Origin: Deltaproteobacteria bacterium
Lineage (GTDB): Bacteria > Desulfobacterota > Desulfobulbia > Desulfobulbales > JAJRZW01
Assembly: GCA_024275015.1 (NCBI GenBank)
Contig: JAJRZW010000009.1
Span: forward strand, 22,500-86,499
Length of the DNA stretch: 64,000 bases
Reading direction: 5' to 3'
The notes below the pieces were generated by a model. It was not told the DNA's origin. It worked only from the letters and a program-made list of their open reading frames with translations, and did no database searches. The position numbers and the translations under genes are program-made. Numbering within the stretch: position 1 is the stretch's first letter; each line of letters begins with the position of its first letter. Positions 29,218 through 63,500 of this stretch are shown piece by piece.

Positions 29218-29246
29218 TTGACAGCAATAATCTTTCAAGATATTCT
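29218..29246 (+). promoter_or_regulatory. Sigma-70-like promoter candidate for the CoADR-rhodanese gene
   Basis: TTGACA-17 nt-TATTCT on the plus strand, about 60 nt upstream of ATG 29310. Confidence 0.3.
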
Positions 29247-31834: not shown

Positions 31835-31957
31835 TTAACAGACCTTTGACCAAAACAAGTTCCGGCCAACCTCTCGATTTCACCGGTTTTTTCAACCCGA
31901 CAAAATCAGCGGCGCGGACATCAGCCGCATACAGTCCGTTTTTCAACGGACTGTTAA
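31835..31957 (-). repeat. Family A repeat, copy A4 (lacks hairpin H5)
   Basis: TTAACAG at 31835 and CTGTTAA at 31951-31957. Lies between convergent genes. Confidence 0.8.
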
Positions 31958-31987: not shown

Positions 31988-34396
31988 TCACCTCTTCACT
32001 CTCCTTACCACCCGCACCACCCTGCGCCCGGATTTTGCCCCCCTTTTTTTCACCACCACCTTTCGCCGCCTGGGGGAAGCGCTGTTTTTCGCCTCCCCGT
32101 CTTTATGTTCATAGCCGCATCCAGCCCGGGGACAACGCAAGATCGTATTTTCCCCTTTTTTCTTTTCCACCAGAAACGGATGGCCGCAACGGCGACAACT
32201 GACGGCATGAGGACGGGACCAGGCCGTAAGACCGCAATCGTCCTCAGTGCAGATATAAAAGAGTCGACCGCTCCCGGTCCGATGCGGAATCACCGCGCCC
32301 AGGCCGCACAGGGGACAAAGCGGCAGGGCCATATTGTCGTCATCCTGAACCCCCCGGCATTCGGGATAGTCATGACAACGCCAGAAGCCGCCGTAACGAT
32401 ACCGCTGCCTGAGCATACTCCGGCCGCATTCAATGCAGACCACCGTTTTCTCCACCGCCGGAACCGCGGGTTCAGGCTCAGGCTCGGGTTCAGAGTCAAA
32501 CCCGGGGGACACGAGTTCCGCCATGACCTCGACGGACCAGTCGCCGTCATCATCACCTTCCCCCCCCGTCTCCGCACCAACCTCCGTCACCTGGGCCTGC
32601 TCTTTTTCTTCCACGGTCAACGGCGCCGGCGGAACCCCGGCGGCCTCCGTTCTCATGGCCCCGTCTTCCAATACCGGCGGCGCGATCTCTTCGCCACTGG
32701 TTTCAAAAGGCTCAGGCGGTGCCACGGCCTCGACCCCACCTTTAATAATTCGCCGCGATATCTGATGCTGTTCAAGATTAACCCGAACCATGGACTTTTT
32801 ACGGACCAGAACCCGACCATGGACAAAAAGGGTCTGATCAAACTGACTCACCGCCTCGGCCAGACGCTTACGGCCTTCGGCAACCTCGTGCACCGTCTGT
32901 TCAAGATAGGGAAGAAGGGACTGCGGAGGAAAACCGGGAAAGGCCCGGGAAAAACCACGCAACAGCATCTCAAACCTTGGCCGCAGGGAAAAACCCGCCC
33001 CCGGCGCGAGGACGAGATAATCAAGGTCCAATAACTGTTCCAGGGTCTGACAGCTTGCGCGATCGGCGTTGATACCCATATCAGCCATGAGTTCCCAGAA
33101 GTCAGGGAGGCCGAAACCTCCGCCGGCACCAGTCTCAGGCGTGACCCCGGCCCGACGGATGCTGATACCCATCCCCGGCTCAAGGGTAAACAAAACCGGC
33201 TCTGCCGCGTCTTCTCCTTCCCCGGCAATGGCGGTGGCAAACCCCGGGGCCAGACAACGACGCCCCCGGGCCCGAACCAAGGCGCCATCCACGGAAACCA
33301 GCTCAACCTGTACCACCTCCTCCTTAAGCGGCGGCATCTGCCAGGCCCGGGCCCTGGCATTTATAAGCCCCAGGATCTCCTTTTCTTCAAGGCTCATCCC
33401 CCCTGCCTCCGGGCCGGAAACCGGTAGAATTGCCGCGGCCGGAAAATCACGCCGGCAAAGGAAATCGGCACCGAATTCAGCCACAACCGCGGCCCGGACC
33501 GCCTCCACCAGCACCTCCAGGGGCGGGCAGGCGTCATAGCCCGGCGAAATCCAGGCAGTCCGACCATTACCGGCGGCAAGGCAGTCAACAACAAGCTGAA
33601 CCCGGGCCGGTGAAAGCCCGAATGTCTCCATGGCCGCAATGGTAAGCGCGGCAAGGGTCAGCGGCGGCGGCGGTTCAATCCCGCAGGTCTGCCGGTCAAC
33701 GGTCGATACCGTAAACGCCATTGTCGCCAGGACATCAGCGCATGCCACCGCCTTTTCCTCCCGGGGAAAGACGCCGGCAACAGTATGCCCCAACATCTCG
33801 GCAAGACGCCCCTCAAATACACCGGCCGCGGCGTCAAACTCGGCAAAAACCCCATACCCTGAATAACCGCCGCCTTCTACGGCGAGAAAATCGGCCATGG
33901 AAAATACCATTGCCACCGCGTTCAAGGAAAGAGGCAGACCTCCGGGACCACGGCCTGAACCGAGGGTACGCCGCAGATGAAATTGCAACTTACGCCCAAG
34001 CTCCCGCCGGGCAAGAACCGCCATGGGAACAGCGGCGCCTGATTCCTGTTCGTCAACCAACGCGGAGGCGATAAGTTCTGGAGACAGACCGGCAAGACGC
34101 AGTTTTTTCACTCGCCCGCCGCGCCATTGCCGCCCCAGAAATGACTCAAGCAGCCAGGTAAGGAATACTCCCTGCGCGTCAGGGGTAAAACAGAGACAGA
34201 CATCGTCACCACCGGCGACGACAAGACGGGCCAAATCTTTTTCCGCTTTCCCTGCGGCGGTAAAAACAAGCCCGTCTCCGGAGTAATCAACCATGACCGG
34301 GGCATCGTCGAACTCAACGTACTCCCGGACCAGGCCATGCGCCAACAGAGCTTCACCTACAACCGGGTTATCAACCGCTGCCAATTGAAAAGCCAT
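31988..34396 (-). CDS. Topoisomerase-IA-like protein with three C-terminal C4 zinc ribbons and a degenerate catalytic core
   Basis: Zn ribbons CIECG..CHDYPEC, CPLCG..CTEDDC, CRRCG..CPRAGC. Segments parallel to TopA (AVDNPVVGEAL vs VESPAKAKTI; FTPDAQG vs TDLDREG; PPPPLTLAALTIAAMETFGLS vs [20 protein letters not shown]). No YxRTDS active site. Confidence 0.55.
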   Translation of the reverse strand: MAFQLAAVDNPVVGEALLAHGLVREYVEFDDAPVMVDYSGDGLVFTAAGKAEKDLARLVVAGGDDVCLCFTPDAQGVFLTWLLESFLGRQWRGGRVKKLRLAGLSPELIASALVDEQESGAAVPMAVLARRELGRKLQFHLRRTLGSGRGPGGLPLSLNAVAMVFSMADFLAVEGGGYSGYGVFAEFDAAAGVFEGRLAEMLGHTVAGVFPREEKAVACADVLATMAFTVSTVDRQTCGIEPPPPLTLAALTIAAMETFGLSPARVQLVVDCLAAGNGRTAWISPGYDACPPLEVLVEAVRAAVVAEFGADFLCRRDFPAAAILPVSGPEAGGMSLEEKEILGLINARARAWQMPPLKEEVVQVELVSVDGALVRARGRRCLAPGFATAIAGEGEDAAEPVLFTLEPGMGISIRRAGVTPETGAGGGFGLPDFWELMADMGINADRASCQTLEQLLDLDYLVLAPGAGFSLRPRFEMLLRGFSRAFPGFPPQSLLPYLEQTVHEVAEGRKRLAEAVSQFDQTLFVHGRVLVRKKSMVRVNLEQHQISRRIIKGGVEAVAPPEPFETSGEEIAPPVLEDGAMRTEAAGVPPAPLTVEEKEQAQVTEVGAETGGEGDDDGDWSVEVMAELVSPGFDSEPEPEPEPAVPAVEKTVVCIECGRSMLRQRYRYGGFWRCHDYPECRGVQDDDNMALPLCPLCGLGAVIPHRTGSGRLFYICTEDDCGLTAWSRPHAVSCRRCGHPFLVEKKKGENTILRCPRAGCGYEHKDGEAKNSASPRRRKVVVKKRGAKSGRRVVRVVRRVKR

Positions 34397-34471
34397 ATAC
34401 CACCCTCGAAATCCCGGAACAGGATTTAAAAAAACACCGTCACCAGCCGATCATTTTATAATGATACCTGA

Positions 34472-36463
34472 ATGCCGCTTCAGGATTCAATGATTCAAGG
34501 GAAAGGGCACGGCAACTCACTTTACCGGGGAAACATATCTTTGGTCTCAAAAGAAGGAATAGAAACAGTGGCCCGGGCCTTGAAACTTTCGCCCGGAACT
34601 TTGAGCCATACCCTGTTCAACGCCATCCGCGAACGCTTCAGTAAACTCGGTCCGGGCGAAAAAACAAGCGCAGACGAATTGGTGACCACTCTATGGGGCC
34701 AGGTCGGCACCGACAAAATCAAAGGAAGAAAAAAACAACTCAGTTCTCTCAAGACCGGCCTTAACCGCAGCCTGAAAAAACTTGCGGAAGCGGAAAACCC
34801 CGAGGGAATAATGATCAATCGCGACAACATCTTCGCGGTCTCGGAAGCACGCAAGGACAAAATCTTAAACGAGATCGGAATTGATTTCTCCAATGCCGGT
34901 CAGATCAAAAATATCATCTCCGCCCTGCGCCGGGGCATCGCCGGGATGAATGATGAGGAACTTTTAACCATGGGCCGGGAAATCACCGGACTCAACCAGG
35001 ATCTGGCGGCCGCCCGGGGCAATACGACGGCCGGCCCCGGGGATGGCAGTGACGCGGACGACATCGAGGAAATAGAGCTTGCCGATGACGAAGAAATCGT
35101 AATTGAGCAAAGAGACCGGACGGATGACGAAGAGGATATTGAAATCATTACAATCGCCGATGACGAGATCGCGGAAACAGAAGACGGGGAAGACGGGACG
35201 GAGATCGTCGAGGTTGACGCGGATGGCCTTAAAGACGGAGACGGCGACAATACCGGCGGCAACGGTTATGATGTGGCGACCGGGGACGAAATGGATGCAT
35301 ATGAATCTGAGCCTGGTGCCGGAGAAGAAGCCGAAGAGGTCGAAATTGATGAGATAGAAGAAGTTGAAGTTGAAGAAGAAGACACGGAACTCCTGGAGAT
35401 TACCGGGGAAGAGACCGCGCCGTTAATAATGGCCGGAACGGACATCAAAGATGTCGGACCTGACAATATAGAGGAGATCATGGCCCAGGTCATCGTTGAA
35501 GACGGTGAGGAAATTATCGAGATTGACGAAGATGAACTGATCACTGCCGATGCCGGAGATGAAAACCTCTCTGACGGAGCGGATGCGACAGAAGGATCAG
35601 GTTCGGGAACAACCCGCGGCACCGACGGATCCAAAGATAGAAGTATAGCCGGAGACAAAAACATCTTTGAGATTTTAAGCCAATACCTTGAACCCGGTGA
35701 CCCGGATCTTGTTAATGGCGATATCCTCGAGGAAAAAGAAGAATACCTGGCCCGGATTGTCGAACGGTTCATTCCCAGATTTATCCATATTCGGGCAGAA
35801 CATGATTTTTATATCGGCCAGTACCCGGTAACCAACGACCTCTTCGCCATCTTCATCCATGATACCGGCTACCTGACCGATGCTGAAGCGGCCGGATACG
35901 GCACCGTTTATCAGCCCCGCAGACGAATATCGACAACGGGCGGGAATAAACGGCAGATGACCATAAACCGGGGCCAGACGGCAGGCCGGGTAAATGGCGC
36001 CTGCTGGCAATTCCCCAACGGGCCGCGGGGAATAAGCGCCGCCGCCAACCCCGACCACCCGGTTACCCAGGTAAGCGTCCGGGACGCCGCCGCCTTTGCC
36101 TCATGGGCCGGCAAGAGACTGCCGAACGAAACCGAATGGGAGGCCGCGGGAAGGGGGAAAGACGGGGCCGGATATCCGTGGGGGAATAAATACCGCAAAG
36201 GCATGGCCAACCTTGAGGACAGCATGCTCGGAGGCTGCTGCCCGGTCAACCGCTTCGGCCCTGTCAGCGCCAGCCCCTTCGGCGTCCGTGACCTGATCGG
36301 TAATTGTCTTGAATGGGTCCGGAACAATGACGATACCGGACCGACCCATATCCTGAAAGGCGGTTCCTGGCTTAACGATCATCGCTGCACCCTGAGCTGG
36401 CGCCGTTTACCGGGAGAGGAATGGTCAAACCTGACCGGGTTCAGGCTGGCGGTGGACGGTTAG
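34472..36463 (+). CDS. Formylglycine-generating-enzyme (SUMF1/FGE-sulfatase) domain protein with a ~200-aa hyper-acidic linker
   Basis: C-terminal VSVRDAAAFASWAGKRLPNETEWEAAGRG..YPWGN..LKGGSW. Residues ~190-400 are D/E-rich low complexity. Confidence 0.7.
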   Translation: MPLQDSMIQGKGHGNSLYRGNISLVSKEGIETVARALKLSPGTLSHTLFNAIRERFSKLGPGEKTSADELVTTLWGQVGTDKIKGRKKQLSSLKTGLNRSLKKLAEAENPEGIMINRDNIFAVSEARKDKILNEIGIDFSNAGQIKNIISALRRGIAGMNDEELLTMGREITGLNQDLAAARGNTTAGPGDGSDADDIEEIELADDEEIVIEQRDRTDDEEDIEIITIADDEIAETEDGEDGTEIVEVDADGLKDGDGDNTGGNGYDVATGDEMDAYESEPGAGEEAEEVEIDEIEEVEVEEEDTELLEITGEETAPLIMAGTDIKDVGPDNIEEIMAQVIVEDGEEIIEIDEDELITADAGDENLSDGADATEGSGSGTTRGTDGSKDRSIAGDKNIFEILSQYLEPGDPDLVNGDILEEKEEYLARIVERFIPRFIHIRAEHDFYIGQYPVTNDLFAIFIHDTGYLTDAEAAGYGTVYQPRRRISTTGGNKRQMTINRGQTAGRVNGACWQFPNGPRGISAAANPDHPVTQVSVRDAAAFASWAGKRLPNETEWEAAGRGKDGAGYPWGNKYRKGMANLEDSMLGGCCPVNRFGPVSASPFGVRDLIGNCLEWVRNNDDTGPTHILKGGSWLNDHRCTLSWRRLPGEEWSNLTGFRLAVDG

Positions 36464-36482: not shown

Positions 36483-36527
36483 GAAAATCGTCGCGTTCTC
36501 CCCGGAGCGGGGAGTTGCGAGTTCATC
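36483..36527 (+). repeat. Family B 3'-end fragment (B4)
   Basis: GAAAATCGTCG..CCGGAGCGGGGAGTTGCGAGTTCATC matches the right end of B1. Confidence 0.6.
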
Positions 36528-36543
36528 ACACAGACATATCAAA

Positions 36544-42553: not shown

Positions 42554-42735
42554 ATGAAGTCGTAACAAATCCCCGTTCCGGCTGAAAACGACGATTTCCG
42601 GGCAACGGGCAGCGGGCTGCTGAAATCCCGAACTCGGGCTATACCCTCAACCATGCGGGATTTCTTAACCAATCCCGCCACCCGGCGCCTTTTCCGGAAA
42701 TCGCCGAAAACGCCTCCGCGGGCACTTGTTACGAG
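42554..42735 (-). repeat. Family B foldback repeat, copy B3
   Basis: GTCGTAACAAATCC...CACTTGTTACGAGG; same orientation as B2. Confidence 0.85.
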
Positions 42736-42799
42736 GCCAACAAAAATTAAAGAATGCAAAATATGAACCACTTCAGGCATCCATCTGAACGCTCACCCG

Positions 42800-42848
42800 G
42801 CGGCGCGGACATCTGCCCCTGGCAGTCCGTTTTTCAACGGACTGCTAA
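42800..42848 (-). repeat. Family A fragment A9 (hairpins H2 and H1 only)
   Basis: GCGGCGCGGACATC..GGCAGTCCGTTTTTCAACGGACTGCTAA. Confidence 0.65.
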
Positions 42849-42849
42849 C

Positions 42850-42987: not shown

Positions 42988-45915
42988 TTACCCCTGAAGC
43001 AGAGACAGCACGTTCTTAGCGCTGGCATTGGCCTGGGCCATGGCAAAGGTGCTTGCCTGGGTCAGGATCTGCATCTTGGAGAAGGTGGATGCCTCTTCGG
43101 CAAAGTCAACGTCGCGAATGGTCGATTCAGCTGCGGTGATGTTGACCTTGGTGGCAGAGAGGTTGGAGATGGTGGAGTTCAGCTGGTTCTGCACCGAACC
43201 GATACCACTCCTGACCTTGTCAAGATCCTTCAGGGCAGCATCGGCAACCGAAATGGCGGTCTGGGCTCCATCCTGGGTAAGGACATTGACTTCGGACAGC
43301 CTGGTCATGGTCGAAGAACCGACCGTGCCAAGGGCGGTACCACTACCGGAGGTGTTGGCCGCGAGGGTGGTGCCGGCGGCAAGGATAGACCCACCCTTGA
43401 CATCCTGGGCATTGGTCATGGTGGTGGCGCTGGCAATGGTCACGGCACTGCTCAGGGTTGAACCGGAAGCGTAAGTGATGCCGTCAGTGCCGGTAATGGC
43501 GTTTGTGAGCACCGTGCCTTGGGCAAAGACACTGCCGGCCGCGACACTGGAGTTAGCTGCCAGGTTCATGGTGCTGCCGGCGCCCACGGTCTCGGCATTG
43601 GCCAGGGTGATGGTGGCGCCAAAGGTGGAGCCGGTGGCAAGGGCGGAACCGTCACCTATCTTGGAACCAATCGCCAGGGACTGGGTATTGGTGATGGTGG
43701 CGTCAGCAGTAAGGGTAAGGTCATTACTGGCGGCGCTTGAACCGTTGGCGAAAACACTCCCAACGATCACCGAAGTTCCCGTTGCCAGGTTCATGGCCGC
43801 GCCCAGGGTGGCGTCGGCGGCAAGGACAAGGGCGTCGGTATCCGCGACCGATTCCGCCGCCAGCACGGAATTAGCGGCAATGGTGGTCCCTCCGTGGGTG
43901 GTCATATTCGCGGTTAACTGGAGATCACCGTGAAGGGTAAAGGCGTCGTTGGCGCCAACGGTATTGGCGGCAAGGGTTGAACCGGTCTCGATCTGCTAAC
44001 CGGTGAGCAGGGTCATGGTTCCGCCGCTGACAGTGAGATCCCTGACCGTCACGTCATCATTGGCCACATAGGAACCAGCCTTGAGAACCGAGCCGGACTG
44101 AAGGTCAATCCCGCTGGGCAGGGTTGATATTTCCCCGGTCAGGGTAAAGGCGCCGCCACCAGCCGTGGTGACACCGGAACCATTGCCGCCGAAGCTCAGG
44201 GTCCAGATCCCGGCGCCAGTAGTGATCGCACCGCCGGCACTGAGATGACTAAGGGCCGCAGTGGCGTCGGCGGCAGTATTGAACACCGTGCCGCTGACCA
44301 GGGTCGAACCGGTGGCGATGACCGAACCGGTTGCGATCAAACCGCCGCCAGCGCCAAAATTGGCCTGATCACCGGCGGCAATGGTGGCACTCCCCTGGAT
44401 TACCGTGCCGGAATTGAGGATCGTGCCGGAAAGCAGAATGGAACCGCTGCCGACCGTCACGTTGCCCGTAGTACTCTTTCCCGAAACCACGATATCAGAA
44501 GTAATGGTGGTCCCAGAACCGATAACCGTACCCGACTGCAGGATTGAACCAGTCGCCGCCACCAGGGTCGCCCCACCGTTAACGACGGTGGAGCCAACGG
44601 TGATATCAGAGGTGACGGAGGTGCCGGTGGCAAGCGAAGTGCCGGAACGAAGAACCGAGCCGGCCCCGGCGACAGTAGCGCCTGAGGTGGTGAAGGCGGC
44701 CACGGTCATATTATTGCTGATCGCCGTGCCGGAATTCAAAACCGTGCCGCTGCCGAGGGTGGACCCGGCGGCGATACTGGACACCACGGTGGTGGCACTC
44801 GTGGTGCCGCTGGTCTCAAGATCGTTGGAAGTGGAGACCGCAAGCCCGGTATCACCAGAATTGGAGATGGTGATCTCCGCGGCCCCGGTCTGGGTAAGCT
44901 TTATCACCCCGAGGGTGCTCATGTCGGTCTGCCCCAAAATGGCATTGACCCCGGTATTGGTGCCGTTGGTAATACTTGTACCGGTAAGCTTGATCGCCCG
45001 ACCGTCAGTAGACGTCAAGGTCAGCTTGCCGGAGACATCGACACTGGCAAAGACCCCGGTATCAGAACTTTTGAGGTTGATCGACTTAACCAGCGAACCG
45101 TCAGAGTCATTTGCCTTAACCGATATCTGACCGATGGTGATACCGTTGATGGCAAAATCGGAATCGGTTGTTCCGGCGGAAACGGCACTTGAGGTGGTTG
45201 AAGTAACCACCGCCTCAGAAGAAATTCCCAGAACGTCGCTCAATTTGTTAATCGCGTCGGAAACCGCCCCAAGGCTGTTCTCGCGATTATTGTTATAGGA
45301 AATATCAATACTGTTAATGTCATAGGTGGCATCCTGAACATTACTGTAGAGACTCAACTGGGCACTCCCGGTGCCGCTGAAAGAAAGCTGCGATGTGTTG
45401 ACATGACCGACCTTGTTTGATTCGGCCGAGGCGATGGAGATACTGACGGTCTCGTGAGAATAAGCGCCGATCTGCATCTGCTTGTTGGTAAACTGACCGG
45501 ACAGGAGTTTCTGGCCGTTAAAGGCCGTGGTCTTGGCGATATTATCCAGTTCCGCCAACAACTTGTCGATGTCCGACTGAATCGCCTTGCGGGACTCGGT
45601 GGTCTGACCGTCCTGGGCCGCCTGAATCGCCTTGGTCTTGATGGTATTGACTATATTAATCGATTCATCCAAGGCACCATCAGCGGTCTGGACCATGGAA
45701 ATACCATCGTTGGCGTTCCTGATTGCCTGCCCCAGACCAAGGGACTGGGACTTGAGTGAATCGGCAATGGCCATGCCGGAAGCGTCATCAGCCGCCTTAT
45801 TGATCCGCAGCCCTGATGAGAGTTTCTCAAGCGATGCCGAAAGGCCCGCGTCGTTTCTCGCCATACTCCTGTGCGCCGTCAGAGCGGCAATATTGGTGTT
45901 GATTCGCAGTGACAT
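42988..45915 (-). pseudogene. fliC: Giant flagellin (~974 codons) interrupted by a single in-frame TAG at 43996..43998
   Basis: ORF 43996..45933 carries only the flagellin N-domain (MSLRINTNIAAL.., ATG 45915, GGAGGA SD). ORF 42988..43905 carries only the C-domain (..QNQLNSTISNL..NVLSLLQG). They share a frame, and the 30 codons between them are open. Confidence 0.85.
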
Positions 45916-46204
45916 GTTTAATCCTCCATCCATGTTAGGTTAACAGGGGCGTCCGTGCCCCAAAAAAAGGTTAAAAAAACAATGCGCATTATCCCCGTAT
46001 ACCAATCACCTCCTTTCCCTGCAGATTTTTCAGACAACGACCCGACTTCGTCGTACCTGTGACCTGAATGCCACCCCGCGCAGAGGAGATGGCCGGAATC
46101 GCCTTCATAAGACCGCCTAAAAGAACCGCCGATGAGCCATCAAAAAAGTACCTGAACCGGTTCCACGATGACGCGACACAACATCTTCTCCCGCTTACCC
46201 TGCC

Positions 46205-46424: not shown

Positions 46425-49318
46425 ATGCCAAGCAACGCCGGACTCCCGGATTTTCTTGCCACCAACATGGCCCTGCTTAAAAAGCATCATCGTCATATAT
46501 GGCAATCACTTGAGGACTCTCCGCCGACGACGATCGGCGAGGTATTCATCACCCCTTCGGGCGAACTCAACCTGCGGATAAAAACCGAAGACTCCAACAG
46601 GACGATCATAATGCACGACCCTGACACCCCGGCCTCGCGCGGCGACGGTTTTCTCTCCAACATTCCGGAAAAAAGCCGGGGCTTCGTCGCGGCTATGGGC
46701 ATGGGATTGGGGTACGGGGCCATGGCAATAATCAATAAACGCCCGGAGATCCGCCACCTTGTGATCCTTGAACGCAATCCCGGCATTTTCATCCAGGCCA
46801 TGCGCCATATTGATCTATCCCCACTGCTGTCAGACCCAAAGGTCATCCTCAGCGTGACTCCCGACCCTGACCTGCCCACCCTCCTGGCCCCGGCGAGAAG
46901 GGCCCTGATGCTCGAAGATATTCATACCCTGAGGCATCTGCCATCGTTCACCCTTGACCCCGAGGGTTATAACGATCTCAACGACCGCCTGTTCCAGATT
47001 TGCAACAAGGCCAACGTCGAGGGCAACACCAACCTCTACCACGGCCGCACCTACCTGAAGAACAGGTTTGCCAACCTCAAGGTTATCCACCACCACTTCC
47101 TCGTCGACAACCTACACAACAAGTTCTCAGAGGTACCGGCGATTCTGGTCGCCGGCGGTCCCTCCCTTGACAAAAACATCAATCAACTGAAAAACGCCGC
47201 GGGACGCGCGGTAATAATCGCGGTTGACTCGACCCTGCCGTCGCTAATGGCCGCCGAGGTCATCCCCGACCTCGTCACCACCATTGATCCCCAGGACCTC
47301 ATCTTTGAAAAATTCGCCGACGTTGTCGCCGAATGCGCCAACACCTCGATCATTACCATGCCGTGGGTATCAAACAAGGTAACCAGGGTCCTGCCGGCAA
47401 AAAAATATTCTGGGCCTTTACCGCCTCAAGCCTTGAGGCCTCCCTGGCCGGTCTCCTCGGGGGCCATGTCCTCACTGGCGGGGCGGCCACTGTCGCCCAT
47501 CTCAACCTGCAGGCGGCCATGATCCTCGGATGTTCACCGATAATCTTCGTCGGCCAGGATCTGGCCTATACCGACAACCGCGACCATGCCGGCAACACCG
47601 CCCTGACCCATAAGGAAACCATGGACATGGCCCTTGGTTCAGGCGATGGAATAGTATGGACCGACAGTGTCACTGGTGGCAGGGTAGCGACCAACCGGTC
47701 ATTTTTTGAAATGAAATGTTATTTCGAAAAGATGATAGAAGACGCGAACGAAAAACATGAATTCATCAACGCCACCGAAGGCGGTGTCGATATCAGGGGA
47801 ACGGCAATCATGTCCCTTGAAGAGGCAATCGGACGTTACTGCCGCCGCGACCAGGGCATAAACGCCAGGATCCATCCAGAAGACAGCGAGTCCCGCCATC
47901 CCGACCCCGGAAACCTCCTGACCGCCTACAAGGTTTTGCTGGAAAGAATCAATACCATTCTAAAAAAAATAAAAGCCAACAGCCGCCGCCATAAACAGGC
48001 GATGCGTGATTTAAATAAAATCAACCGGAAAGGCACCCCCGTCACCCCGCAGACGATGCCGGAGACCTTGCAGAAGATCATTGGCGCGATTGACCGATGC
48101 CACGAGGATCTTGACCGGGAAACCGATATCTGGCGGCTGATGCAGGAAATAACCCTGCAGGGAATCAAGAATTCGGAGCAGGAAAAACATCACCTTAAAA
48201 GCATTGAAAACGATCAGGGAAGGTACCACGAATGGATCACCGGCAGCCTGCGTTGCCTTGAGACAATAAACAATGTGCGCCGCGAGGCCCTGATCATATT
48301 CAAAAAAGCCTTTGAGGAAACAATACAATTTCACAACCGGGAAAAACGGCTGCGATCACAGCTCTCCGAGGGAAACAAAAACGGCGCCATGCCCCTGGCC
48401 CGGTTTTATTACCGCGACGGCCAGACCACCCTCCTTGCCGCGGCCATAGAATCCATGGACGCGGACGACAGGAATTCCGCCGAAGCACATTATTACCAGG
48501 GCATAATAAACTCTTACTGGAAAAGATTCGAACCGGCGGCCGGACACTTTGCCGCAGCCATGGAAAAAGACCCGTCGTACCGCGAGAAGGTCAATCATTT
48601 CAGGAAAGAAATGGCGGAAGAGTACCGCGTCTATGGCAGGAACTGGATCATTGACGTGAAAAGCAGGCGGAGAATGCTGATAAAGGGCTTACAGTACCAC
48701 CCCGAATACCGGCCCTTGATTAACGACATCCGGACTCTGGCGTATACCGACCTCAAGGTGGCTGGATACCCGTCAATCGCCTCCCCTCACCTTGACCACG
48801 ATGGCCTCATCCGCTCATGGTGTCATGACATTGAAGAAAACAAGATCTTTGCCGCCAAGATTCCGCCCGAACAGATAACTGCGTTCTACCGTCATCTGAT
48901 CCGTATTCAACGCCGCGATAACGACATCGCTGGCGCCCTCGGAAGCTACAGCCGCATCCTGACCGTCACCCCCGATTCCCCGGGTATCCACCACGAAGTG
49001 GCCGACCTCCTCTTCGGCATCGGCGAGTTCACCCAGGGGATAGCACACCTTGACCGGGCCGTGGCCCTTGACCCGTCATATGCTTCATCATGGGAAAAGA
49101 TAGGAGACCACCTGTTTGACACCGGACAATACGAAGAGGCGATAACCGCCTATGAAAAATGCTTTACCGCCCTACCGGACAGACACGCCAGCCTGAAAAA
49201 AATCGGCGACTGCTACCTGGCCATGGACCGTCCCGAGGCGTCAAAGGCCGCCTATCTCGCTCTGAAAGAGAAAATCACCGCGGCAGGACATCCACCCCCG
49301 GTTTCGACACGCTCATAA
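46425..49318 (+). pseudogene. maf: Motility accessory factor (Maf/DUF115-type putative flagellin glycosyltransferase) with C-terminal TPR region; frame broken by a -1 shift in the A7 run 47399..47405
   Basis: ORFs 46425..47522 and 47333..49318 overlap. Joining at the A-run gives a continuous ..VLPAKK-IFWAFTASSLEA.. sequence. Maf core VAGGPSLDKN..AVDSTLP. Confidence 0.8.
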
Positions 49319-50235: not shown

Positions 50236-50340
50236 TTGTCAAACCGTTGAAAAAGCCGTCAACGGCTTTTTCAACTCCGGTCGGCCAAAACAAGCTCCGG
50301 CCAATCTCTCGATTTTATTGGATTTTTCAACAGACTGTCA
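50236..50340 (-). repeat. Family A repeat, copy A5 (internally deleted)
   Basis: H5 and H4 are intact, and H3 is truncated onto a terminal TTTTTCAACAGACTG. Its last 3 nt are the TGA of the upstream radical SAM gene. Confidence 0.75.
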
Positions 50341-51798
50341 GGACGCCTTCCTGAACCTCTTGCTCTCAAAATGACGTGCGCCGCGGAATTTCGTTTCACC
50401 TCTGAAATAAAGATTATGAAATTTTTCAATCATCGCGTGGGCTTTGTCCATGTCGCCACCGACATGCTCAAAATAGTCAAGGATAAGCTCCCGGTTGGCC
50501 GCGAACAACAGGCCATAGAATTCCTCATCGCTGAGGCTGGTGAAGTTCACGGTAAGCAGGTCAGAGTTGACGAATTTATCAAAAAAGTCCCCAGGCCCGG
50601 CGAGAAGCCCCTTCTTTATGGCGTAATGGTACAGTTCGCAACCGGGGAAAGGGGTTATCGGCCTTATGGTCCGCAGCTCATTGTAGCTCTGGAATTTCTT
50701 GATGAAATCAACACTTCTGCGAAGAGTCTCGGCGTTGTCACTCATGATGCCCCAGATAAAATTTATCCCCATTGGCACCCCGTGCTTTTTCATCAGGGTC
50801 GCGGTGGTAAAATTATCGGTTACCGTGGTGTTCTTCCTGAAATCATCGAGGCATTCCTGGGTGACAGATTCAAAGCCGACATTAACATAGCAGCAACCTG
50901 AATCCTTCAACAGCACCGCGAGTTCATCGGTGGCGATATTGGCCCGAATCCCGGCGTTTATATTGTATTTGATCTTACCCATAAGGCCGCTTTCCCGTAA
51001 TCCTGCCACGAACTCCCGCAACCGGTCCACCGAGGCGATAAAAACCTCGTCCTGGAGGGCAAAATAAGTCACCCCGTAATCCTCGTATAATTGCTTCATC
51101 TCGGCCAAGACATTGTCAATACTGCGGAAACGAACGCCTTTCTCCATCCGGTAACAGAAAGTGCAGCGGTTTACGCATCCCCTGCCGGTCAGGATCTGAA
51201 TCGCCTTTTCATCATCACCCTGAAGGTGATACTGCATATTGGTGGTGTATATATCCATGGGGAACATATCCCAGGCCGGAAAAGGTATCCTGTCTATCTT
51301 CATGATCGGGGCACGCCGCTTATTGCGTCTGATCCGACCTTCCCCGTCCCGATAGACTATGCCCCTAACGGTTGTAAGATCCCTGCCGCCGGTAACGGCG
51401 TCAAGAAGATCAACCACGGTTTCCTCCGCCTCGCCCACCGCGACGATATCCGCCATACTATTGGCAAGGATATACTCCGGCTCCGAGGATGGCCCGTGGC
51501 CACCGAAGACAATCCGGGCGTTTTTCTTGTGGGCGTGAACGACCTCGCACAGTCCCGTAACCGTTTCCCTGAACCTCGCGGCCAGAAAACCGATACCTAT
51601 CAGGTCGTACTCTTTGTCCATCAGGTACTTTTCCACCACCTCGTCATTACTGTAATGATAGATATCCTGACAGCATATCGTCACCTCCGCCCCCTCCTCA
51701 CGCAGAACCGAGGCGAGATACGCCACCCCGAGGGGGAACTGATTATCTTCCTGGTAAACATCATGAACGATAAACAAAACCCTGCCCTTAGCCGCCAT
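50338..51798 (-). CDS. B12-binding-domain radical SAM enzyme
   Basis: N-terminal cobalamin-binding-like domain; CVNRCTFC cluster motif. Confidence 0.85.
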   Translation of the reverse strand: MAAKGRVLFIVHDVYQEDNQFPLGVAYLASVLREEGAEVTICCQDIYHYSNDEVVEKYLMDKEYDLIGIGFLAARFRETVTGLCEVVHAHKKNARIVFGGHGPSSEPEYILANSMADIVAVGEAEETVVDLLDAVTGGRDLTTVRGIVYRDGEGRIRRNKRRAPIMKIDRIPFPAWDMFPMDIYTTNMQYHLQGDDEKAIQILTGRGCVNRCTFCYRMEKGVRFRSIDNVLAEMKQLYEDYGVTYFALQDEVFIASVDRLREFVAGLRESGLMGKIKYNINAGIRANIATDELAVLLKDSGCCYVNVGFESVTQECLDDFRKNTTVTDNFTTATLMKKHGVPMGINFIWGIMSDNAETLRRSVDFIKKFQSYNELRTIRPITPFPGCELYHYAIKKGLLAGPGDFFDKFVNSDLLTVNFTSLSDEEFYGLLFAANRELILDYFEHVGGDMDKAHAMIEKFHNLYFRGETKFRGARHFESKRFRKAS

Positions 51799-56148: not shown

Positions 56149-56230
56149 TATCAGACCGTTGAAAAAGCCGTCCATGGATTTTTCAACTTCGGTTGGCCAA
56201 AACAAGTTCCGGCCAACCTCTCGATTTCAC
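56149..56230 (-). repeat. Family A repeat, copy A6 (H5-H4 half)
   Basis: CAGACCGTTGAAAAAGCC..GGTTGGCCAAAACAAGTTCCGGCCAACCTCTCGATTTCAC. Confidence 0.75.
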
Positions 56231-56281
56231 CAGATCATCTGGTTGCAAAATCCGTCCTGGCCTTTGCAACCAGATGATCTG
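56231..56281. repeat. Perfect 19-bp inverted repeat with a 13-nt loop
   Basis: CAGATCATCTGGTTGCAAA-atccgtcctggcc-TTTGCAACCAGATGATCTG. Contains the stop codon and the last ~15 codons of the CMP-sugar synthetase ORF. Confidence 0.8.
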
Positions 56282-56951
56282 CGAAAATATACTTCTTCAT
56301 TGCGGCCTCCGCGATTACCCAGTCGTCAATATCATCAATGTCAAGCGCTGAATATTCAGGCATTTCATATATCTTTATCCTGCCGCACAGCCTGTTTCCA
56401 TTTTTCACAAAACCGCCAACGGTATTAATATAGAAAGCTCCATTTTCCATAAGCTCTCCCTCTATCTCTTGTCTTCTTGGACGAAACCTGTAGTCGTAAT
56501 TAACGGGAGAACCGTCTTCGTTCCATAAAAACACCTTAAGCCTCGCGCAGGAGAGCAATGAATCACATCCGCTTTCACGATATCCGGCCAGGGCACCTTC
56601 AAGATCGACCGTTCTGATCAGGGGATTTGTCGCCTGCGCCAGGATAAAAACGTCATCATCGTCGAAGTCATGTCTACCGAGAAATTCAAGAACAACGCTC
56701 TCGGTTGAAGAATGATCCTGCGCGTTTGCCGCATCCCTCATGTATACCTTCACCTTGTCGAGGGCAAACCCCTCGACCACGCTCCTGATCTCGTCGCAAT
56801 CAGTGGCCGCATAGACCGCATCGATCCCCGATACCGCTGAAAGCGCCCGCAGAGCCCAGAAAACCAGCGGCCTCCCGCAGAATTCTTTTATATTCTTCAT
56901 CGGAATCGACTTGCTGCCGCATCTGAGCGGCACAAAAGCTATGGTCTTCAT
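56235..56951 (-). CDS. Acylneuraminate cytidylyltransferase family (CMP-nonulosonic acid synthetase)
   Basis: AFVPLRCGSKSIPMKNI N-terminal motif; 238 aa. Confidence 0.85.
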   Translation of the reverse strand: MKTIAFVPLRCGSKSIPMKNIKEFCGRPLVFWALRALSAVSGIDAVYAATDCDEIRSVVEGFALDKVKVYMRDAANAQDHSSTESVVLEFLGRHDFDDDDVFILAQATNPLIRTVDLEGALAGYRESGCDSLLSCARLKVFLWNEDGSPVNYDYRFRPRRQEIEGELMENGAFYINTVGGFVKNGNRLCGRIKIYEMPEYSALDIDDIDDWVIAEAAMKKYIFADHLVAKARTDFATR

Positions 56952-56978: not shown

Positions 56979-57135
56979 TTAACAGACTGTTGAAAAAGCC
57001 GTCCTGGCTTTTTCAACTCCCGGTTGGCCAAAACAAGTTCCGGCCAACCTCTCGATTTCACTGGTTTTTTCAACCCGGTGAAATCGGCGACGCGTCCGTG
57101 CGCCGCGACCAGCCCGTTTTTCAACGGGCTGTTAA
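56979..57135 (-). repeat. Family A repeat, copy A7, full length
   Basis: TTAACAG at 56979 and CTGTTAA ending at 57135; all five hairpins present. Confidence 0.9.
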
Positions 57136-58190: not shown

Positions 58191-59036
58191 ATGAAAACTG
58201 ACAAAAAAAAATACCAGGACGGCCTTGACCTCCTCCGCCGACCGGCCATGCCCCTGGTCCGTCTGCTCATCCTGCTTTATATCACCGGCCCCTTTATCAC
58301 CATTGACGAGCTGACCGGGGAATTGAACGAAGAGGTGGATACCGGCCAGGTCGTCTACCCTGATCCGGCCGCGACCCTGGCCCCGTATTCCCGGGAACTG
58401 AGGCTGATCGAAAGGATCAAAGACAACGGCTCCGCCGCCCCCGGGACGGTAACGACCCCGGCGGGAGACCCGCTCGATCCCCTGGAGGCAGTGGAACTAA
58501 TCGTCGGCCAGAAGATCATGACCCGGGAGCTTGAAACGATAAACAGCCGCCTGTGCCGCCCCTGCCATTGTTCCCTCTGCTGCGTGGGACCGACAAAAGA
58601 CATGGCCCAGGAATTCTTTGAGATTCCCCTTGCCGCCACCGAGGTCAAGGACTTTGCCCTTGACCTTGTCGATACCCCGGAGAGCCGCGAACTCAATCCA
58701 GACTCCGGATACCGGCCCGACGGCATCCCCTTTTACCGCCGCCCCGCGGCCATCTACCGCTTCCGCGACGGTTTCAGTCTCATCCTGCCCAAAAAAAGCC
58801 GCTGCCCCAACCTTGACGAACCGGATGGCTGCGCCATCTACCACCGCCGTCCGGAGGTCTGCCGCCGCCCCCAGATATTCCCCTATCTGCTCGAAAAAAA
58901 AGGCGACACAAACATCGTGAGGAAAAAACTTCTGGCCGTAATCGACTGCCCCTATGTCCGCGACCTGAAGGAAGAAATCGCCGCCTACGCCGCCGGCTGC
59001 GGCGCGGAACTGGTCCTGCGGCACAACAAGGGTTAA
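58191..59036 (+). CDS. YkgJ-type (CxxCxxCC) zinc/iron-chelating domain protein
   Basis: CRPCHCSLCC and CPNLDEPDGCAIYHRRPEVCRRP motifs. Confidence 0.65.
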   Translation: MKTDKKKYQDGLDLLRRPAMPLVRLLILLYITGPFITIDELTGELNEEVDTGQVVYPDPAATLAPYSRELRLIERIKDNGSAAPGTVTTPAGDPLDPLEAVELIVGQKIMTRELETINSRLCRPCHCSLCCVGPTKDMAQEFFEIPLAATEVKDFALDLVDTPESRELNPDSGYRPDGIPFYRRPAAIYRFRDGFSLILPKKSRCPNLDEPDGCAIYHRRPEVCRRPQIFPYLLEKKGDTNIVRKKLLAVIDCPYVRDLKEEIAAYAAGCGAELVLRHNKG

Positions 59037-59189: not shown

Positions 59190-59243
59190 CGGTCTGTTAA
59201 TGGACAGCTTTTTTTCAACCCTCTGTTCATAGAGCGCTTACGG
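59190..59243 (+). repeat. Tail of extra family A end fragments plus a family C core (C4)
   Basis: CGGTCTGTTAA; CAGCTTTTTTTCAACCCTCTGTT; GTTCATAGAGCGCTTACGG. Confidence 0.55.
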
Positions 59244-59252: not shown

Positions 59253-59284
59253 AAAAAAACAGGGGGCCCGAAAAGGGCCCCCTG
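59253..59284 (-). terminator. Rho-independent terminator after the lipoprotein gene
   Basis: 10-bp stem CAGGGGGCCC/GGGCCCCCTG followed by T7 on the minus strand. Confidence 0.7.
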
Positions 59285-59311
59285 TTGCAAACCTGTCGCG
59301 ACCACGTACGC

Positions 59312-60292
59312 CTACGGCTCGATCGGGCCGCTCAGCTCCCCGGGGATGAGCCGGAGCTTGAAGCTCTGGCCAATGGTGTAGTCATAAGCCCCGCCGCTGG
59401 TCTTGGCAGGACTCAGGGTAAAGGTGTAGGTGGCGTTGCCCCCGGGCGCGGCGACATTGCCGATGACCGAAGAAGCGTTGTAGGTGGTGGTCGGCCCGGT
59501 GATGGAAAAGCTCCCGTCGCTCTGCTTATACTCTATATTACTTACCCCCGGATCAGCGGTCACAGCCACCCCGGCGATACCGTTACCACTGCTGTCCTCG
59601 ACATCCATGGAGAATACCGCGTCAGCCGTGGAGAACCCGAGCGCCGGCAACAGGGTGTTTACATCGGAAGTCCTGGTGTAATAAAATTTCACCGTTCCGG
59701 TATAATCGCTATCCTTGCCGATCTGCAGGTTTGCCGAGGTGTAGTCGGTGCCGTCGACATTCCTGCCCTTGGCGTGGAGATAAAAATCATAACCGGTTGG
59801 AACATTTATGCTGTAATGGCCGAGAATGCCGGTTACCGAATTCTGGGTCGTGGCGGACGACAGCACCGAGTCATCCACCGGGTTACGGGCCTCGATGGCC
59901 ACCCCGCCGAGCATGTCCCCGCTGTTGCTGTCCTCAAGGGTACCGGTAACCGTGGCCCTGGCCGAACAGTTCACGGTCACGGTCACCGCGGCGGTGGCAG
60001 TGCCGGAGGGGCTGGCGGCCACGCAGATCCTGTCCGACGGCTGGGTCTTGACCGTTACATGATACCCTGCGCCATAGATAACCTTAGTGACAAAGGCCGG
60101 GGTCCCATCCGTCGACACGGTCAGGTCATCGCCGCCGTTGTTCTGCAGGACCACGGAATCACTGCCGAGGCCGCTCACATTCGCGCTGATCTGGTTGTAA
60201 ACCGGGTCGTCGCTGCCGCAGCCGGAAACAGTGAGCAGGGCCATGGCCGACAGGGCCACCCCAATAAAAAACACATGTTTTCTCTTCTTCAT
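59312..60292 (-). CDS. Lipoprotein with repeated beta-sandwich-like (carboxypeptidase-regulatory-like) segments
   Basis: ATG 60292 (MKKRKHVFF..), lipobox LLTVSGC; S/T/G-rich mature part. Confidence 0.55.
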   Translation of the reverse strand: MKKRKHVFFIGVALSAMALLTVSGCGSDDPVYNQISANVSGLGSDSVVLQNNGGDDLTVSTDGTPAFVTKVIYGAGYHVTVKTQPSDRICVAASPSGTATAAVTVTVNCSARATVTGTLEDSNSGDMLGGVAIEARNPVDDSVLSSATTQNSVTGILGHYSINVPTGYDFYLHAKGRNVDGTDYTSANLQIGKDSDYTGTVKFYYTRTSDVNTLLPALGFSTADAVFSMDVEDSSGNGIAGVAVTADPGVSNIEYKQSDGSFSITGPTTTYNASSVIGNVAAPGGNATYTFTLSPAKTSGGAYDYTIGQSFKLRLIPGELSGPIEP

Positions 60293-60463
60293 GACTTCCT
60301 CCATTTTTTCATATCCGTATATCCGCCCCGCCGGAACGCCATAAAAACAATCCGGGGAACCTGTTTTCAAGCGTAGGCAGGATAACACCGGCTAACCTAC
60401 AGATTCCCTACAGAAGGTGAAAATATTTTTTCAAAGCAGAAACAAACGGGAAATGAACCGGGA

Positions 60464-60500
60464 GTGAAAAGCCATGGACGGCTTTTCCAACGGCCTGATA
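60464..60500 (+). repeat. Family A fragment A10 (H5 plus terminal repeat)
   Basis: GTGAAAAGCC-atggac-GGCTTTTCCAACGGCCTGATA, 4 nt from the regulator stop codon. Confidence 0.6.
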
Positions 60501-60504
60501 CAGG

Positions 60505-63500
60505 TTACCGGATACCCGGAGGACGACGGAATTTCTTTCGGCCTGTGGCCTCGGCAATGATCCCGGCGGTAAGGGATGAAGGCTCAACGCCCGCGGCGGC
60601 GAGGACCCTCACACAATGGCGGGACACCGACAACGCCCGGTCGCGCTGCCCCCGGGCAAGGTAACAACGCACGAGCCCCTGATAAAACTCCTCAATCAGA
60701 TCGTCGGCCTCAAGCCCACGGAGATAAACATCGCAGGCGGCAACGAATTGTTTTTTTTCCTCAAGGCCACGACAGAACTCCCCCACATGGCAGATGAACT
60801 TGTCCCGCAGACGTTCACGTACCGGAACGGCCCAGCCCCCGGCCTCCTGGCTCAGGAAATCTCCCCGGTAAAGCCCGAACGCCTTTGCCAGAGCTCTGCC
60901 GCCGCCAACGGCATCGGCAGAGGTGAGCAGTAACTCAAAGGCCCGGAAATCGATATAGCAAAGGTCCCGGGCAAGACTTACCCGGCCCATGCGGTACACC
61001 ACCGCCCCGCGAACGCCGAGGATCTTTCGCAACCGGGTTATGGTGACTTCCAGACTCTTGTGCGCCGCGTCACCGTCGGCATCCGGCCAGAGTATATCAA
61101 ACAGAGTGGCCTCGTTCACGTCATCCCCGCCCATGGCAATCAGGACCATAAGCAATTCCAGAGGTTTTTTCGGCGTCTTGCCGCGAAAACCAAGGCGAAC
61201 GCCGTCAACAAAGATCTCGAAACGACCAAGGGTATAGATTTTGACCGGCCACGGCCATAATTCAAGATGAACGGGAAGACAGGCGGGAACAAGCCGGCGG
61301 CGGCGAACGAGATCGCGGACGTAATCCGCCTCTATCCCTTCATCCAGCGCCATGACGCACAGATTCGCCATCAGCTCCGGATGCCACCAGGAAAAGTTCA
61401 CATATCCCCGGCGACGGCCAATCGCCAGCCCCTCGCCAAGACACCGCATCCCCTCCTCCCTGTCTCCGGCGGCAAAAGAAAAAACCGCCCGCATGAGCAG
61501 GACGACGAATCTTATCGAGTCACTGCCGAGTTGACCGGCTATCCGCGCCGCGGTCTCAAGCCCGGACATGGCCCCGGACAGGTCACCGCTGTCGTGCCGC
61601 AGATGGGCCATGGCCAGGTTACCTTGGGCCATGGCGTAATGAAGGCCAACGGTATCCGCCAGTTTCAGTGCCTGCGCCTGATGATCCATGGCACGGGGCA
61701 GATCTCCCTTGAGATGCAGATACCACGAGGTCTCGTAGTGAAAATAGAAACGATCCAGAATCCGGCCCCGCTCATCCACCCCGGCCATCCGCTTGAGAAA
61801 TTCTCCGGCCCGTTCGAGATCTCCGTCCGAGAGGGAAGCCGCAACCCCCTGTACCAGCAGGAGGTAATCCCAGGTATGCACTCCGGTCTCGGCGGCAAGA
61901 GCGAGACCGGAGTCAACCGTCCGGCAGGAGGCGTCGCAGTCGCCGGTGAGCCAGACCCAGGTCCCGGCCATCCTGGCGGTTATAACCGCGAGCGGAGCCG
62001 GGGCCTGTTCCTTTCCCGTCATCCTGGAAAGAATGCTCTCGGCCCTGGGATAGTCCCCGATCCAGATGGCAAAGGTGTGGAGATAAAAACCGGCAAACAT
62101 CGCAAAGGAAGAATCGGGACAGTGACCAATAAGGGCCTCAGCCCTCGCGGCCCATGAGGAAAACTGCGGATGCCGGGGTTGCCGCACCGCCAGCGCCCCG
62201 AACATCCCCGCCACGACCCCGGCTAAAACCCCGTCCTGCGACGACGACTGACGCCCCATGATTCCGTCAAGCACGGATATCCACTTGTCAAGGGGGCGCA
62301 GATCCCCCATTTCATGCAGATAGGTTCCCACCACCCCCGCCCACGCCCTGAATATCCCCGACAGGTCATCCCGGTGGGTGAACGCTTCATGGGCGCGGAC
62401 GAAAAAAGGCCGGCTCCCGGCCGGATCACCGCCAACCATCCGGCACACCCCGCTCCAGTAAAGGAGCCAGGGTCGCTCGGCAAGCAGGGTCTCCGGCAAC
62501 GATACAAGCCATTGCAAAAGCAGCCGGTCCCTCGCCTCGGCGACAAGCCCTTCCGCCTGACGCCCGGCCAGATCGGCCAGGGCGGCGAACCCCCCGCATT
62601 GACGGTAAAGAGCCGCGGCATCATCCATATTGCCGTCTTCCTCCAGAAAACGGGCCGCGGCCATACGCATGCCCTTTATCTCAACATCGCTGTAGGCCAG
62701 ATGCGCCATCCGCGAAAGGAACTCGCGAAACAGGGGGTGGTAACCGTAAACCGGCTCGTACCTGCTGTAGCGCTCGATGAAATAATTACCCGCCTGCAGT
62801 CTGGTCAAAACACTCCCGGCGTCATCCCGACCGGTGAGCCGGACAGCCAGGCCGGGAGTAAACTCCGGCACCATGGCGGTCCGCTGCAAAAAATCCCGCA
62901 GCCCCCCGTCTAAACCGGCAAACACCTCCTCGGCAAAATAGGAGAATATCTCTTCATGGCCCCCGAGTCCGGCCACTCCGGGGACAGATTCCCCTACCCC
63001 GCCGAGCAGGACCAGGGCCGCGGCCCAGCCCCCGGCGGCCTTGGATATCCGCCGGATCTCGGCTGGCCCGAGCTCCCCGCCGCTCTGGAGCCTGATAACC
63101 TCCCCGGCCTCATCATCGGTAAAGCGTATGTCATCCCAACCTACCACCGCCATCGCCTTGTTCGCCCGGATCCGGATCAGCTCCCGGGGAGGATGATCAC
63201 GACTCATGATGACGACGCCGGATCCCTCCGGGACCACTGCCAGGCCATTTTTTATGATCTCATGGAGGGAGGAATCAGGGCTCAATTCATGATAATTGTC
63301 CAGTACCAGTAGGCCGGACGAGGGGAATCTGACAAAAAGGGCCTCGAAATAACGCCGGGCAAACATCGGGGCCGCGGCCCGATATTCCGGAGACAGCAGG
63401 GGCAGATCCCCACCCTGTCCGGGAGCCGACTTTTCCACCGCCATCCCGAGGTAATGGAAAAAAGTGCTCGGCTCATCATCGCGCCGATCAAGACGATACC

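Follow-up and report, generated by a model that had tools for sequence, protein, structure and literature searches.

Introduction

Bacterial MITEs are small, non-coding, multicopy sequences, below ~200-400 bp in length and with no transposase or other conserved ORF, bounded by a terminal inverted repeat (TIR) and a target-site duplication (TSD), and in addition are AT-richer than their hosts and have TA at their termini (PMC2229807, PMC3184786, PMC10969869). The repeat described here, which we call family A, has each of these features. TA termini are typical of bacterial MITEs in general, and one of them, the RUP element of Streptococcus pneumoniae, has been linked to an IS630 element (PMC2229807). 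RUP resembles family A in being small, non-coding, intergenic and multicopy, with a TIR and with TA at the termini or target, and also in its presumed mobilization in trans by a transposase that shares its TIR, in that case IS630-Spn1 (PMC2229807). It differs in length (107 nt with a short TIR, compared with 155 nt for family A), has no five-hairpin body and no sequence similarity to family A, and its proposed partner can be named, as IS630-Spn1.

The Correia elements (CREE) of Neisseria are nearer in size, being in the ~155 nt class, and they too have a long TIR (24 bp; PMC2229807), TA termini and a TSD. High density beside genes and sub-forms produced by internal deletion are likewise common to Correia and family A, and the co-transcription, IHF-motif core and RNA-level processing of Correia may be likened to properties of family A, for which co-transcription is presumed (PMC2229807, PMC2649163, PMC10969869). 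In Correia, however, the two TIRs pair to form one long RNA stem, whereas family A forms five local hairpins and each TIR lies within a hairpin of its own; sequence and host are unrelated, and promoter-like sites were not detected in family A. ERIC (IRU) is another intergenic repeat with a stable RNA fold, and is transcribed with orientation-dependent effects (PMC2229807). At 127 nt and with a 7-bp TIR, it has no sequence relationship to family A. To our knowledge, BOX elements lack a clear TIR and TSD. BOX modules occur in variable combinations and have been considered MITE-like (PMC3184786), which recalls the full, mini and solo forms of family A, although again no sequence relationship exists.

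REP sequences and BIMEs consist of 22-35 nt hairpin modules located downstream of genes and between convergent or co-directional genes, and share with family A a tendency to mosaic arrangements and a possible RNA role (PMC3733652, PMC3184786). Family A differs in having no GTAG/CGTC tag, in the fixed order of five hairpins inside a TIR, in its flanking duplication, and in being AT-richer than its host rather than GC-rich. In work by Liang, Rudd and Deutscher from 2015, stop-proximal REPs reportedly affect translation, and the hairpins of family A that lie near stop codons recall this. Finally, the Chunjie MITE of Geobacter uraniireducens, a host then classed as a deltaproteobacterium, has a 21-bp TIR and a highly stable RNA fold, and is found inside operons without breaking them (PMC3184786). 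Chunjie is 178-235 nt long with 9-bp direct repeats, and its sequence is unrelated to that of family A.

Results

Genomic setting

The window, by which we mean the whole stretch of 64,000 nucleotides analysed here, contains glnD-glnA, dsrABD, sat, flagellar genes and a flagellin-glycosylation cluster, as annotated with Pfam. Its DsrA is 81% identical to that of Desulfurivibrio alkaliphilus and 87-90% identical to those of the closest metagenomic relatives. GlnA gives the same picture of relatedness, and less conserved proteins of the window are only ~63% identical to their nearest relative.

Copies of family A

Family A is represented in the window by five full copies (~155-157 nt, up to 158) and five to eight partial ones, according to profile and covariance-model searches. 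Together they occupy 11 of the 33 intergenic regions and ~15% of the window's non-coding DNA. With a profile built from the five full copies (nhmmer), E is 1e-50 to 1e-54 for these copies and 3e-6 to 3e-35 for five partial ones, and a covariance model (CM R1) scores the full copies at 156-191 bits with E down to 1e-57; over both methods, the full copies fall between E 1e-47 and 1e-57. The family was also recovered by repeat finding in the window, and the TIR core CAGNCNGTTGAAA occurs 13 times where 0.06 occurrences are expected by chance. Orientation is mixed, 5(+)/6(-). The elements are listed below, with the five hairpins of the body numbered H1 to H5.

2878-3032 (+): A1, full copy; the glnA stop TAA (2879-2881) lies inside the left TTAA
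7993-8037 (-): solo H1-like end TTAAACAGACCGTTGAAAAACGGTGATG in a divergent histidine-kinase/Rrf2 spacer; nhmmer E 0.007, CM E 3e-4, TIR-core match
25253-25275 (+): degenerate H1-like remnant, ATAA CAACCCGTTTAAAAACG, abutting the TPR-gene stop; weak nhmmer match, with an orthologous remnant in relative L005
25330-25487 (+): A2, full copy; flanks GTAC / GTAA, TPR-gene stop 74 nt upstream
29052-29207 (+): A3, full copy; right flank degenerate, between divergent dsrA and pyr_redox promoters
31835-31957 (-): A6, without H5; TTAA on both sides, right end 3 nt from the stop of a PLD-like gene
42798-42849 (-): A9, H1+H2 mini-element; linker CTGCCAGG, flanks GTTAG / GTGAG
50236-50340 (-): A7, without H1(3')-H2-H3(5'); left end TGACAG, providing the TGA stop of the B12-radical-SAM gene (50338-50340)
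56149-56277 (-): A8, consisting of H3(3')-H4-H5-right end (56149-56243) and an H5-like hairpin (56241-56277) with a 12-nt inverted repeat on its flanks
56979-57135 (-): A4, the focal full copy, 157 nt, between the tatC stop and the cytidylyltransferase start; CM 190.9 bits, E 1e-57
57135-57132 (-): left TTAA of A4
57131-57110 (-): H1 of A4, GAAA loop
57106-57087 (-): H2 of A4
57086-57053 (-): H3 of A4
57049-57022 (-): H4 of A4, CUUG loop
57017-56989 (-): H5 of A4
56988-56979 (-): right end of A4, AGTCTG and TTAA
59033-59189 (+): A5, full copy; the ykgJ stop TAA (59034-59036) lies inside the left TTAA
59190-59229 (+): two tandem right-end fragments after A5, CGGTCTG+TTAA (59190-59200) and TGGACAGCTTTTTTTCAACCCTCTG+TTCA (59201-59229), read directly
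60456-60502 (+): A10, right-end fragment (H5 and terminus); terminus 2 nt from the stop of the BTAD-regulator gene (60505-60507)

All ten copies that an earlier sequence-only reading of this DNA had listed were found again, in place or shifted by a few bases (nhmmer, CM R1), and the fragments at 25253-25275, 59190-59229 and 56241-56277 come in addition. One of the ten, 42800-42848, had been taken for a deleted or truncated copy and is not simply that, being a member of a separate H1+H2 mini subfamily common to the window and to a mini-element in relatives L010 and L011. That reading had also described four copies as bounded by TTAA on both sides; there are indeed four, and the correct members are those beginning at 2878, 31835, 56979 and 59033.

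Structure and conservation of the unit

A full unit consists, in order, of TTAA, H1, H2, H3, an invariant linker, H4, H5, (A/G)GTCTG and TTAA. The TIR is ~19 nt long, TTAACAGnCnGTTGAAAAA, inverted at both ends with 2-3 mismatches, and reads (TTAA)CAGnCnGTTGAAAAA with the outer tetranucleotide included; each terminus also folds into its own hairpin. H1 is CAGTCCGTT-GAAA-AACGGACTG, H4 is GGTTGGCCGGAA-CTTG-TTTTGGCCAACC and H5 is GTTGAAAAAGCC-A(T)GGAC-GGCTTTTTCAAC. H2 exists in two sequence types, each of them a GC hairpin, of which type I has the loop AUGGAC. The stem GCGGCGC/GCGCCGC, given earlier as the H2 stem of the family, is found in three copies and not in the others. The loop of H3 includes GTTGAAAAA, a motif with three direct occurrences and one inverted occurrence in the full unit, and TCGAGAG links H3 to H4. 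No reading frame is open across all copies, and the GC content of the family is 49%, compared with ~56% for the host.

The focal copy folds into the five consecutive hairpins that had been drawn for it by eye, with an MFE of -83.2 kcal/mol and a z of -8.25. In a model-guided alignment, which forces two truncated copies to full length, 90.4% of stem cells are paired, as against 28-53% with slid partners, and the observed covariation was reached by 0 of 500 shuffles. A hand count was added, and it gave compensatory changes in H1 (U-A to C-G), H2 (C-G to U-A) and H5 (C-G to U-A), and at two adjacent pairs of H3; the mini-element of L011 shows two G-C to C-G flips in its H2. DNA palindromes can gain compensatory changes without RNA-level selection.

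Pairwise identity among copies is 77-92% (8-23% divergence). By module, H4 is the most conserved at 92%, followed by H1 at 88%, with H2, H3 and H5 at 75-78%; H4 thus exceeds the TIRs (88% and 78%) in conservation. The A(U)GGAC loop is common to type I H2 and to H5 over differing stems, and is again present over a differing stem in H2 of a relative's mini-element (L011 5270-5290). DDE transposition requires neither the conservation of H4 nor this loop, and the two features hint at an additional constraint. The linker AAATCGAGAGnTTG (57050-57064) resembles the IHF consensus WATCAANNNNTTR with one mismatch, a similarity that we regard as a lead only; it has the same position in all eight copies that possess it, and its sole variable base falls in the N stretch of that consensus.

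Deletions between short internal direct repeats (GTTGAAAAA, CAACGG) account for the partial copies. For example, the deletion junction of A7 joins GTTGAAAAA of the left TIR to GTTGAAAAA of the H3 loop, and that of A6 lies between short CAAC(C)GG repeats. The right-end remnants in tandem after A5 are each followed by TTAA or TTCA, and we interpret them as what is left of earlier insertions into the same TTAA that then decayed. The H1+H2 mini-elements have a flanking direct repeat and lack a recognizable right TIR.

Flanks and empty sites

The flanks of family A are all of the form N-TA-N: TTAA eight times, GTAC/GTAA, ATAA, TTAG, and ATAC twice. Direct repeats, TTAA..TTAA, surround four copies, and TTAG..TTAG surrounds the L011 mini-element; since the latter is a direct and not an inverted repeat, it represents a duplicated target rather than a TIR.

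Two pairs of empty and filled sites were found in comparison with relatives, and they reveal insertion polymorphism. At the 3' end of glnA, the window is filled by A1 (...TAT TAA [CAG..A1..CTG TTAA] C ATCCAG...terminator) and relatives L007 and L008 are empty (...TAT TGA TGACAG ATCCAG...terminator); taking out the element and one TTAA brings the flanks into alignment. In the adh_short/neuB spacer the situation is reversed, in that the window is empty (...TGG TAG TGCCG...GTG) and L010 and L011 hold a 49-nt H1+H2 mini-element with TTAG on each side (...TGT TAG [CAGTCGGTTGAAAAACGGACTG CCATG CGCCCCATGGACGGGGCG G TTAG] AGCAGCG...GTG; CM E 1e-5). In both pairs one T(T)AA or TTAG remains after removal of the element, which supports the earlier suggestion that TTAA might be a TSD. 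Judged from these comparisons, with relatives no more than 90% identical on DsrA and GlnA, the duplicated flank would be either TA or 4 bp (TTAA, once TTAG).

No copy was found in relatives at the sites orthologous to A2, A3, A4, A5, A6 and A8. The TPR-dsrD spacer of L003-L005 has nothing in place of A2, unrelated sequence of ~125 nt stands at the A3 site, no copy follows ykgJ in L010-L015 (A5), and the spacer corresponding to A8 is only 22 nt in L010 and L011. The sites upstream of dsrA and 3' of the PLD-like gene were rejected as clean empty sites, being too diverged. In ~150 kb of relatives' DNA there is no composite element, and there are one mini-element and three solo H1/TIR-like motifs; the corresponding loci of Desulfurivibrio alkaliphilus contain neither composite nor modules. 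Because relatives' DNA has modules only, the expansion of the composite belongs to the lineage of the window, and the modules are older.

Association with stop codons

The copies had been described as lying always outside reading frames, and this is not so. The left TTAA or TGA of the element is the stop codon of glnA, of ykgJ and of the B12-radical-SAM gene, and A8 codes for the C-terminal 15 residues of the cytidylyltransferase (56235-56951) and for its stop, with an RBS 2 nt after A8; the insertion replaced the end of that gene and added the 15 element-encoded residues. The L011 mini-element starts at a TAG stop, one end of A6 and of A10 lies 3 nt and 2 nt, respectively, from a stop, and a solo H1-like motif directly adjoins the stop of neuB in L011 and that of the TPR gene, in the latter case both in the window and at the orthologous place in L005. 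In all, 6 of 11 elements have an end on, or no more than 3 nt from, a stop codon (binomial p ~0.002), and 4 of 9 clear left ends are on a stop (binomial p ~0.03). Of the window's 52 non-coding TTAA sites, only 6 share bases with a stop, and the association therefore exceeds random use of such sites. The simplest reading is that the TA/TTAA target overlaps TAA and TAG stops and that its duplication restores the stop, with insertions elsewhere in short spacers being purged by selection.

Searches for named families

Family A matches no named family in the collections searched, in agreement with the sequence-only reading, which could not assign it. At gathering thresholds Rfam gave no match in the window, and the best sub-threshold match of the focal copy in an E-value search was sraL (16.4 bits against a threshold of 39), with nothing credible. 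There was no family A match to plasmids or phages by blastn. When GTDB genomes and JGI metagenomes were scanned for exact matches to the core CCGGAACTTGTTTTGGCCAAC, each yielded a single chance match, in the same Balneolaceae coding sequence, and scans of viral contigs for the H1 and linker/H4 patterns gave none. A literature search on MITEs in Desulfobulbaceae found no reports.

Three described classes were rejected by their own hallmarks. For REP/BIME, defined as a 20-40 bp palindrome with a tag (PMC3733652), no GTAG or CGTC adjoins H1-H5, and CGTC occurs only inside the H2 stem of one copy. IS200/IS605-derived PATEs have no TIR and no TSD, their subterminal hairpins lie on one strand, and their orientation follows the replication strand; family A has a TIR, variable right flanks and a 5(+)/6(-) distribution. 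Integron attC sites were judged by R''/R' core sites (RYYYAAC ... GTTRRRY), cassette context and a nearby integrase. The ends of family A are TTAACAG/CTGTTAA, which do not qualify as attC core sites because GTTAAC does not fit GTTRRRY; no integrase is present, and the neighbours are syntenic housekeeping genes.

Other features of the window

Mirror-image promoter-like sites (TTGACA-17-TATTCT) at 29007-29035(-) and 29218-29246(+) would serve dsrA and the divergent pyr_redox gene and are kept in relatives. A3 has inserted precisely in the gap that separates them, at 10-16 nt from either -35 box. In the region 59258-60388, ORF 59285-60376(+) is spurious (GC3 0.54), and the real gene is on the minus strand, from 59312 to ~60304 (GC3 0.74); its product is a lipoprotein (lipobox LTVSGC) that matches nothing in Pfam, and a strong bidirectional terminator (59258-59286) closes the gene. 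The B12-binding radical-SAM gene beside A7 (50338-51798) has no counterpart in the glycosylation cluster of L011, which is syntenic in other respects.

The window also contains a second, unrelated MITE-like family, family B, of ~190 nt with long inverted ends GATGAAnTCGTAACAAnTCCCCGCTCCGG...CGATTTCCGG and three copies that are 82% alike:

8763-8956 (-): family B copy
25916-26106 (+): family B copy
42554-42735 (+): family B copy
36503-36530 (near) and ~25640-25660: family B end-like fragments

A copy or fragment of family A lies at a distance of 60-730 nt from each family B copy. A 4.6-kb segment (31988-36463), with a topoisomerase-like gene of 802 aa and an FGE-sulfatase-domain gene of 663 aa, is bracketed by A6 and a family B end fragment; it is absent from the syntenic L004, where aroB directly follows the PLD-like gene. 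The flagellin at 42988-45933 seems to be split into 43996-45933 (Flagellin_N) and 42988-43905 (Flagellin_C), with internal 42-nt repeats at 44278-44775; possible explanations are a pseudogene, a frameshift and an assembly error. In the Maf-like flagellin glycosyltransferase (46425-49318), the MptE-like domain is divided between ORFs 46425-47522 and 47333-49318, which overlap, suggesting a frameshift.

Discussion

Family A, which comes from an uncultured Desulfobulbales relative of Desulfurivibrio, is probably a transposable element of the non-autonomous MITE type. The earlier comparison to MITE, Correia or BIME-type intergenic repeats is supported by the TIR, the small size, the lack of an ORF, the diverged copies and the insertion polymorphism. 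Judged by sequence comparison, the family is real, well defined, previously undescribed and unnamed, and, for all the unusual tidiness of its five-hairpin body, ordinary in kind.

Pfam annotation of the window's genes bears out the earlier statement that the window holds no transposase, and mobilization would be in trans, by a DDE transposase encoded elsewhere in the genome. Termini with 5'-CAG beside TA are typical of IS630/Tc1/mariner ends, and the enzyme may be IS630/Tc1-like, with TA as the duplication. Alternatively, it may be IS5-like with a 4-bp YTAR duplication, as is known for IS5 elements (PMC5009759). A partner IS would carry the ends (TA)ACAGnCnGTTGAAAAA. Insertion duplicates the N-TA-N flank and, when it falls on a stop codon, the duplication regenerates the stop. 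The copies would be transcribed together with neighbouring genes, as part of a 3'-UTR or as intercistronic RNA, and their hairpins may incidentally alter mRNA stability or processing, as in ERIC and Correia.

The association with stop codons admits a bolder reading, which we consider unlikely: the element, or its H1/TIR end, could be a stop-codon-seeking hairpin module that the host has co-opted as a 3'-end or intercistronic RNA device. If this were true, it would insert into the TA of TAA and TAG stops and regenerate the stop, so that the terminating ribosome would have a GNRA-capped hairpin immediately behind it, and the invariant H4 after that. Such a device could act in mRNA protection, in processing or in the coupling of translation termination, and it would account for H4 and the A(U)GGAC loops outlasting the transposition ends in conservation.

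A related scenario, and in our view quite an unlikely one, is that family A is primarily a selected cis-acting RNA module that spread because of its function, the five hairpins serving as a 3'-UTR or intercistronic RNA that protects or processes mRNAs or acts at translation termination. The sense strand does fold better than its complement in 8 of 10 copies. H1 has a GNRA (GAAA) loop, and H4, the most conserved module, is capped by a CUUG loop and extended by an invariant G-U/G-U that only the sense strand can form. Seven of nine orientable copies are sense to the adjacent gene, and the ends abut stops far beyond random use of TTAA (6/52 non-coding TTAA overlap stops). There are also precedents in the orientation-dependent effect of ERIC on mRNA stability and the RNase III processing of Correia (PMC2229807, PMC10969869). 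However, the 7/9 bias is not significant: an apparent 5/5 became 7/9 once ORF 59285-60376(+) proved spurious, which makes A10 antisense and A5 convergent, while A6 is ambiguous and A3 lies between two promoters. G-U mispairs outnumber C-A mispairs by only ~15 to 10, again not significant, in a hand count over canonical stems with the invariant H4 pairs set aside. No Rfam family matches, and no consistent terminator or promoter is found inside the element. Furthermore, copies diverge by 8-23%, many are internally deleted, and relatives fare well without the element at the same sites. The case for a function at the RNA level is suggestive but weak.

It is improbable that a single hairpin module is the unit of mobility, as in a system like REP/BIME or the IS200/IS605-derived PATEs. 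A Y1 (HUH) transposase would then move single-stranded DNA modules and insert them 3' of TTAA or TTAG, and the 155-nt composite would be a mosaic. The scenario draws on the solo H1 motifs at 7993-8037 and 25253-25275, the H5-only fragment at 60456-60502, and the H1+H2 minis at 42798-42849 and in L010 and L011. The minis have flanking TTAG repeats and yet no right TIR, loops are conserved over covarying stems, and the elements are mostly 3' of genes, as REPs are (PMC3733652). On the other hand, no unpaired GTAG or CGTC tag is conserved beside any hairpin, as REP membership would entail (PMC3733652), and there is a clear inverted terminal repeat of ~19 nt, which IS200/IS605 ends do not have. The right flanks vary (TTAA, GTAA, ATAC), fitting duplicated targets rather than a cleavage site borne by the element. 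The 5(+)/6(-) orientation coincides with a constant negative GC skew, and there is therefore no replication-strand bias. No Y1/RAYT transposase is found among the window's genes (Pfam), and in every full copy five different hairpins follow one another in the same order, which speaks for the whole unit moving together. An artefact of assembly or chance similarity is virtually excluded, being already refuted by eight copies at E 1e-20 to 1e-57, by 13 TIR cores where 0.06 are expected, and by copies that differ by 8-23% among themselves, each in a unique syntenic gene context.

Returning to family A as a MITE, it opens no new class of system. For annotation, it accounts for ~15% of the contig's non-coding DNA, and for several odd ORF calls, three stop codons and one altered protein C-terminus. 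Because copies lie beside the dsrAB promoter region, glnA and the flagellin-glycosylation operon, they could affect the expression of these genes. Finally, we note that the association with stop codons, and a TIR-bounded composite alongside minis that lack a TIR, make family A a modestly interesting case of MITE tolerance in compact genomes. As a lineage marker, it stands for a lineage-specific burst of a mobile element in an uncultured, Desulfurivibrio-like, sulfur-cycling bacterium.
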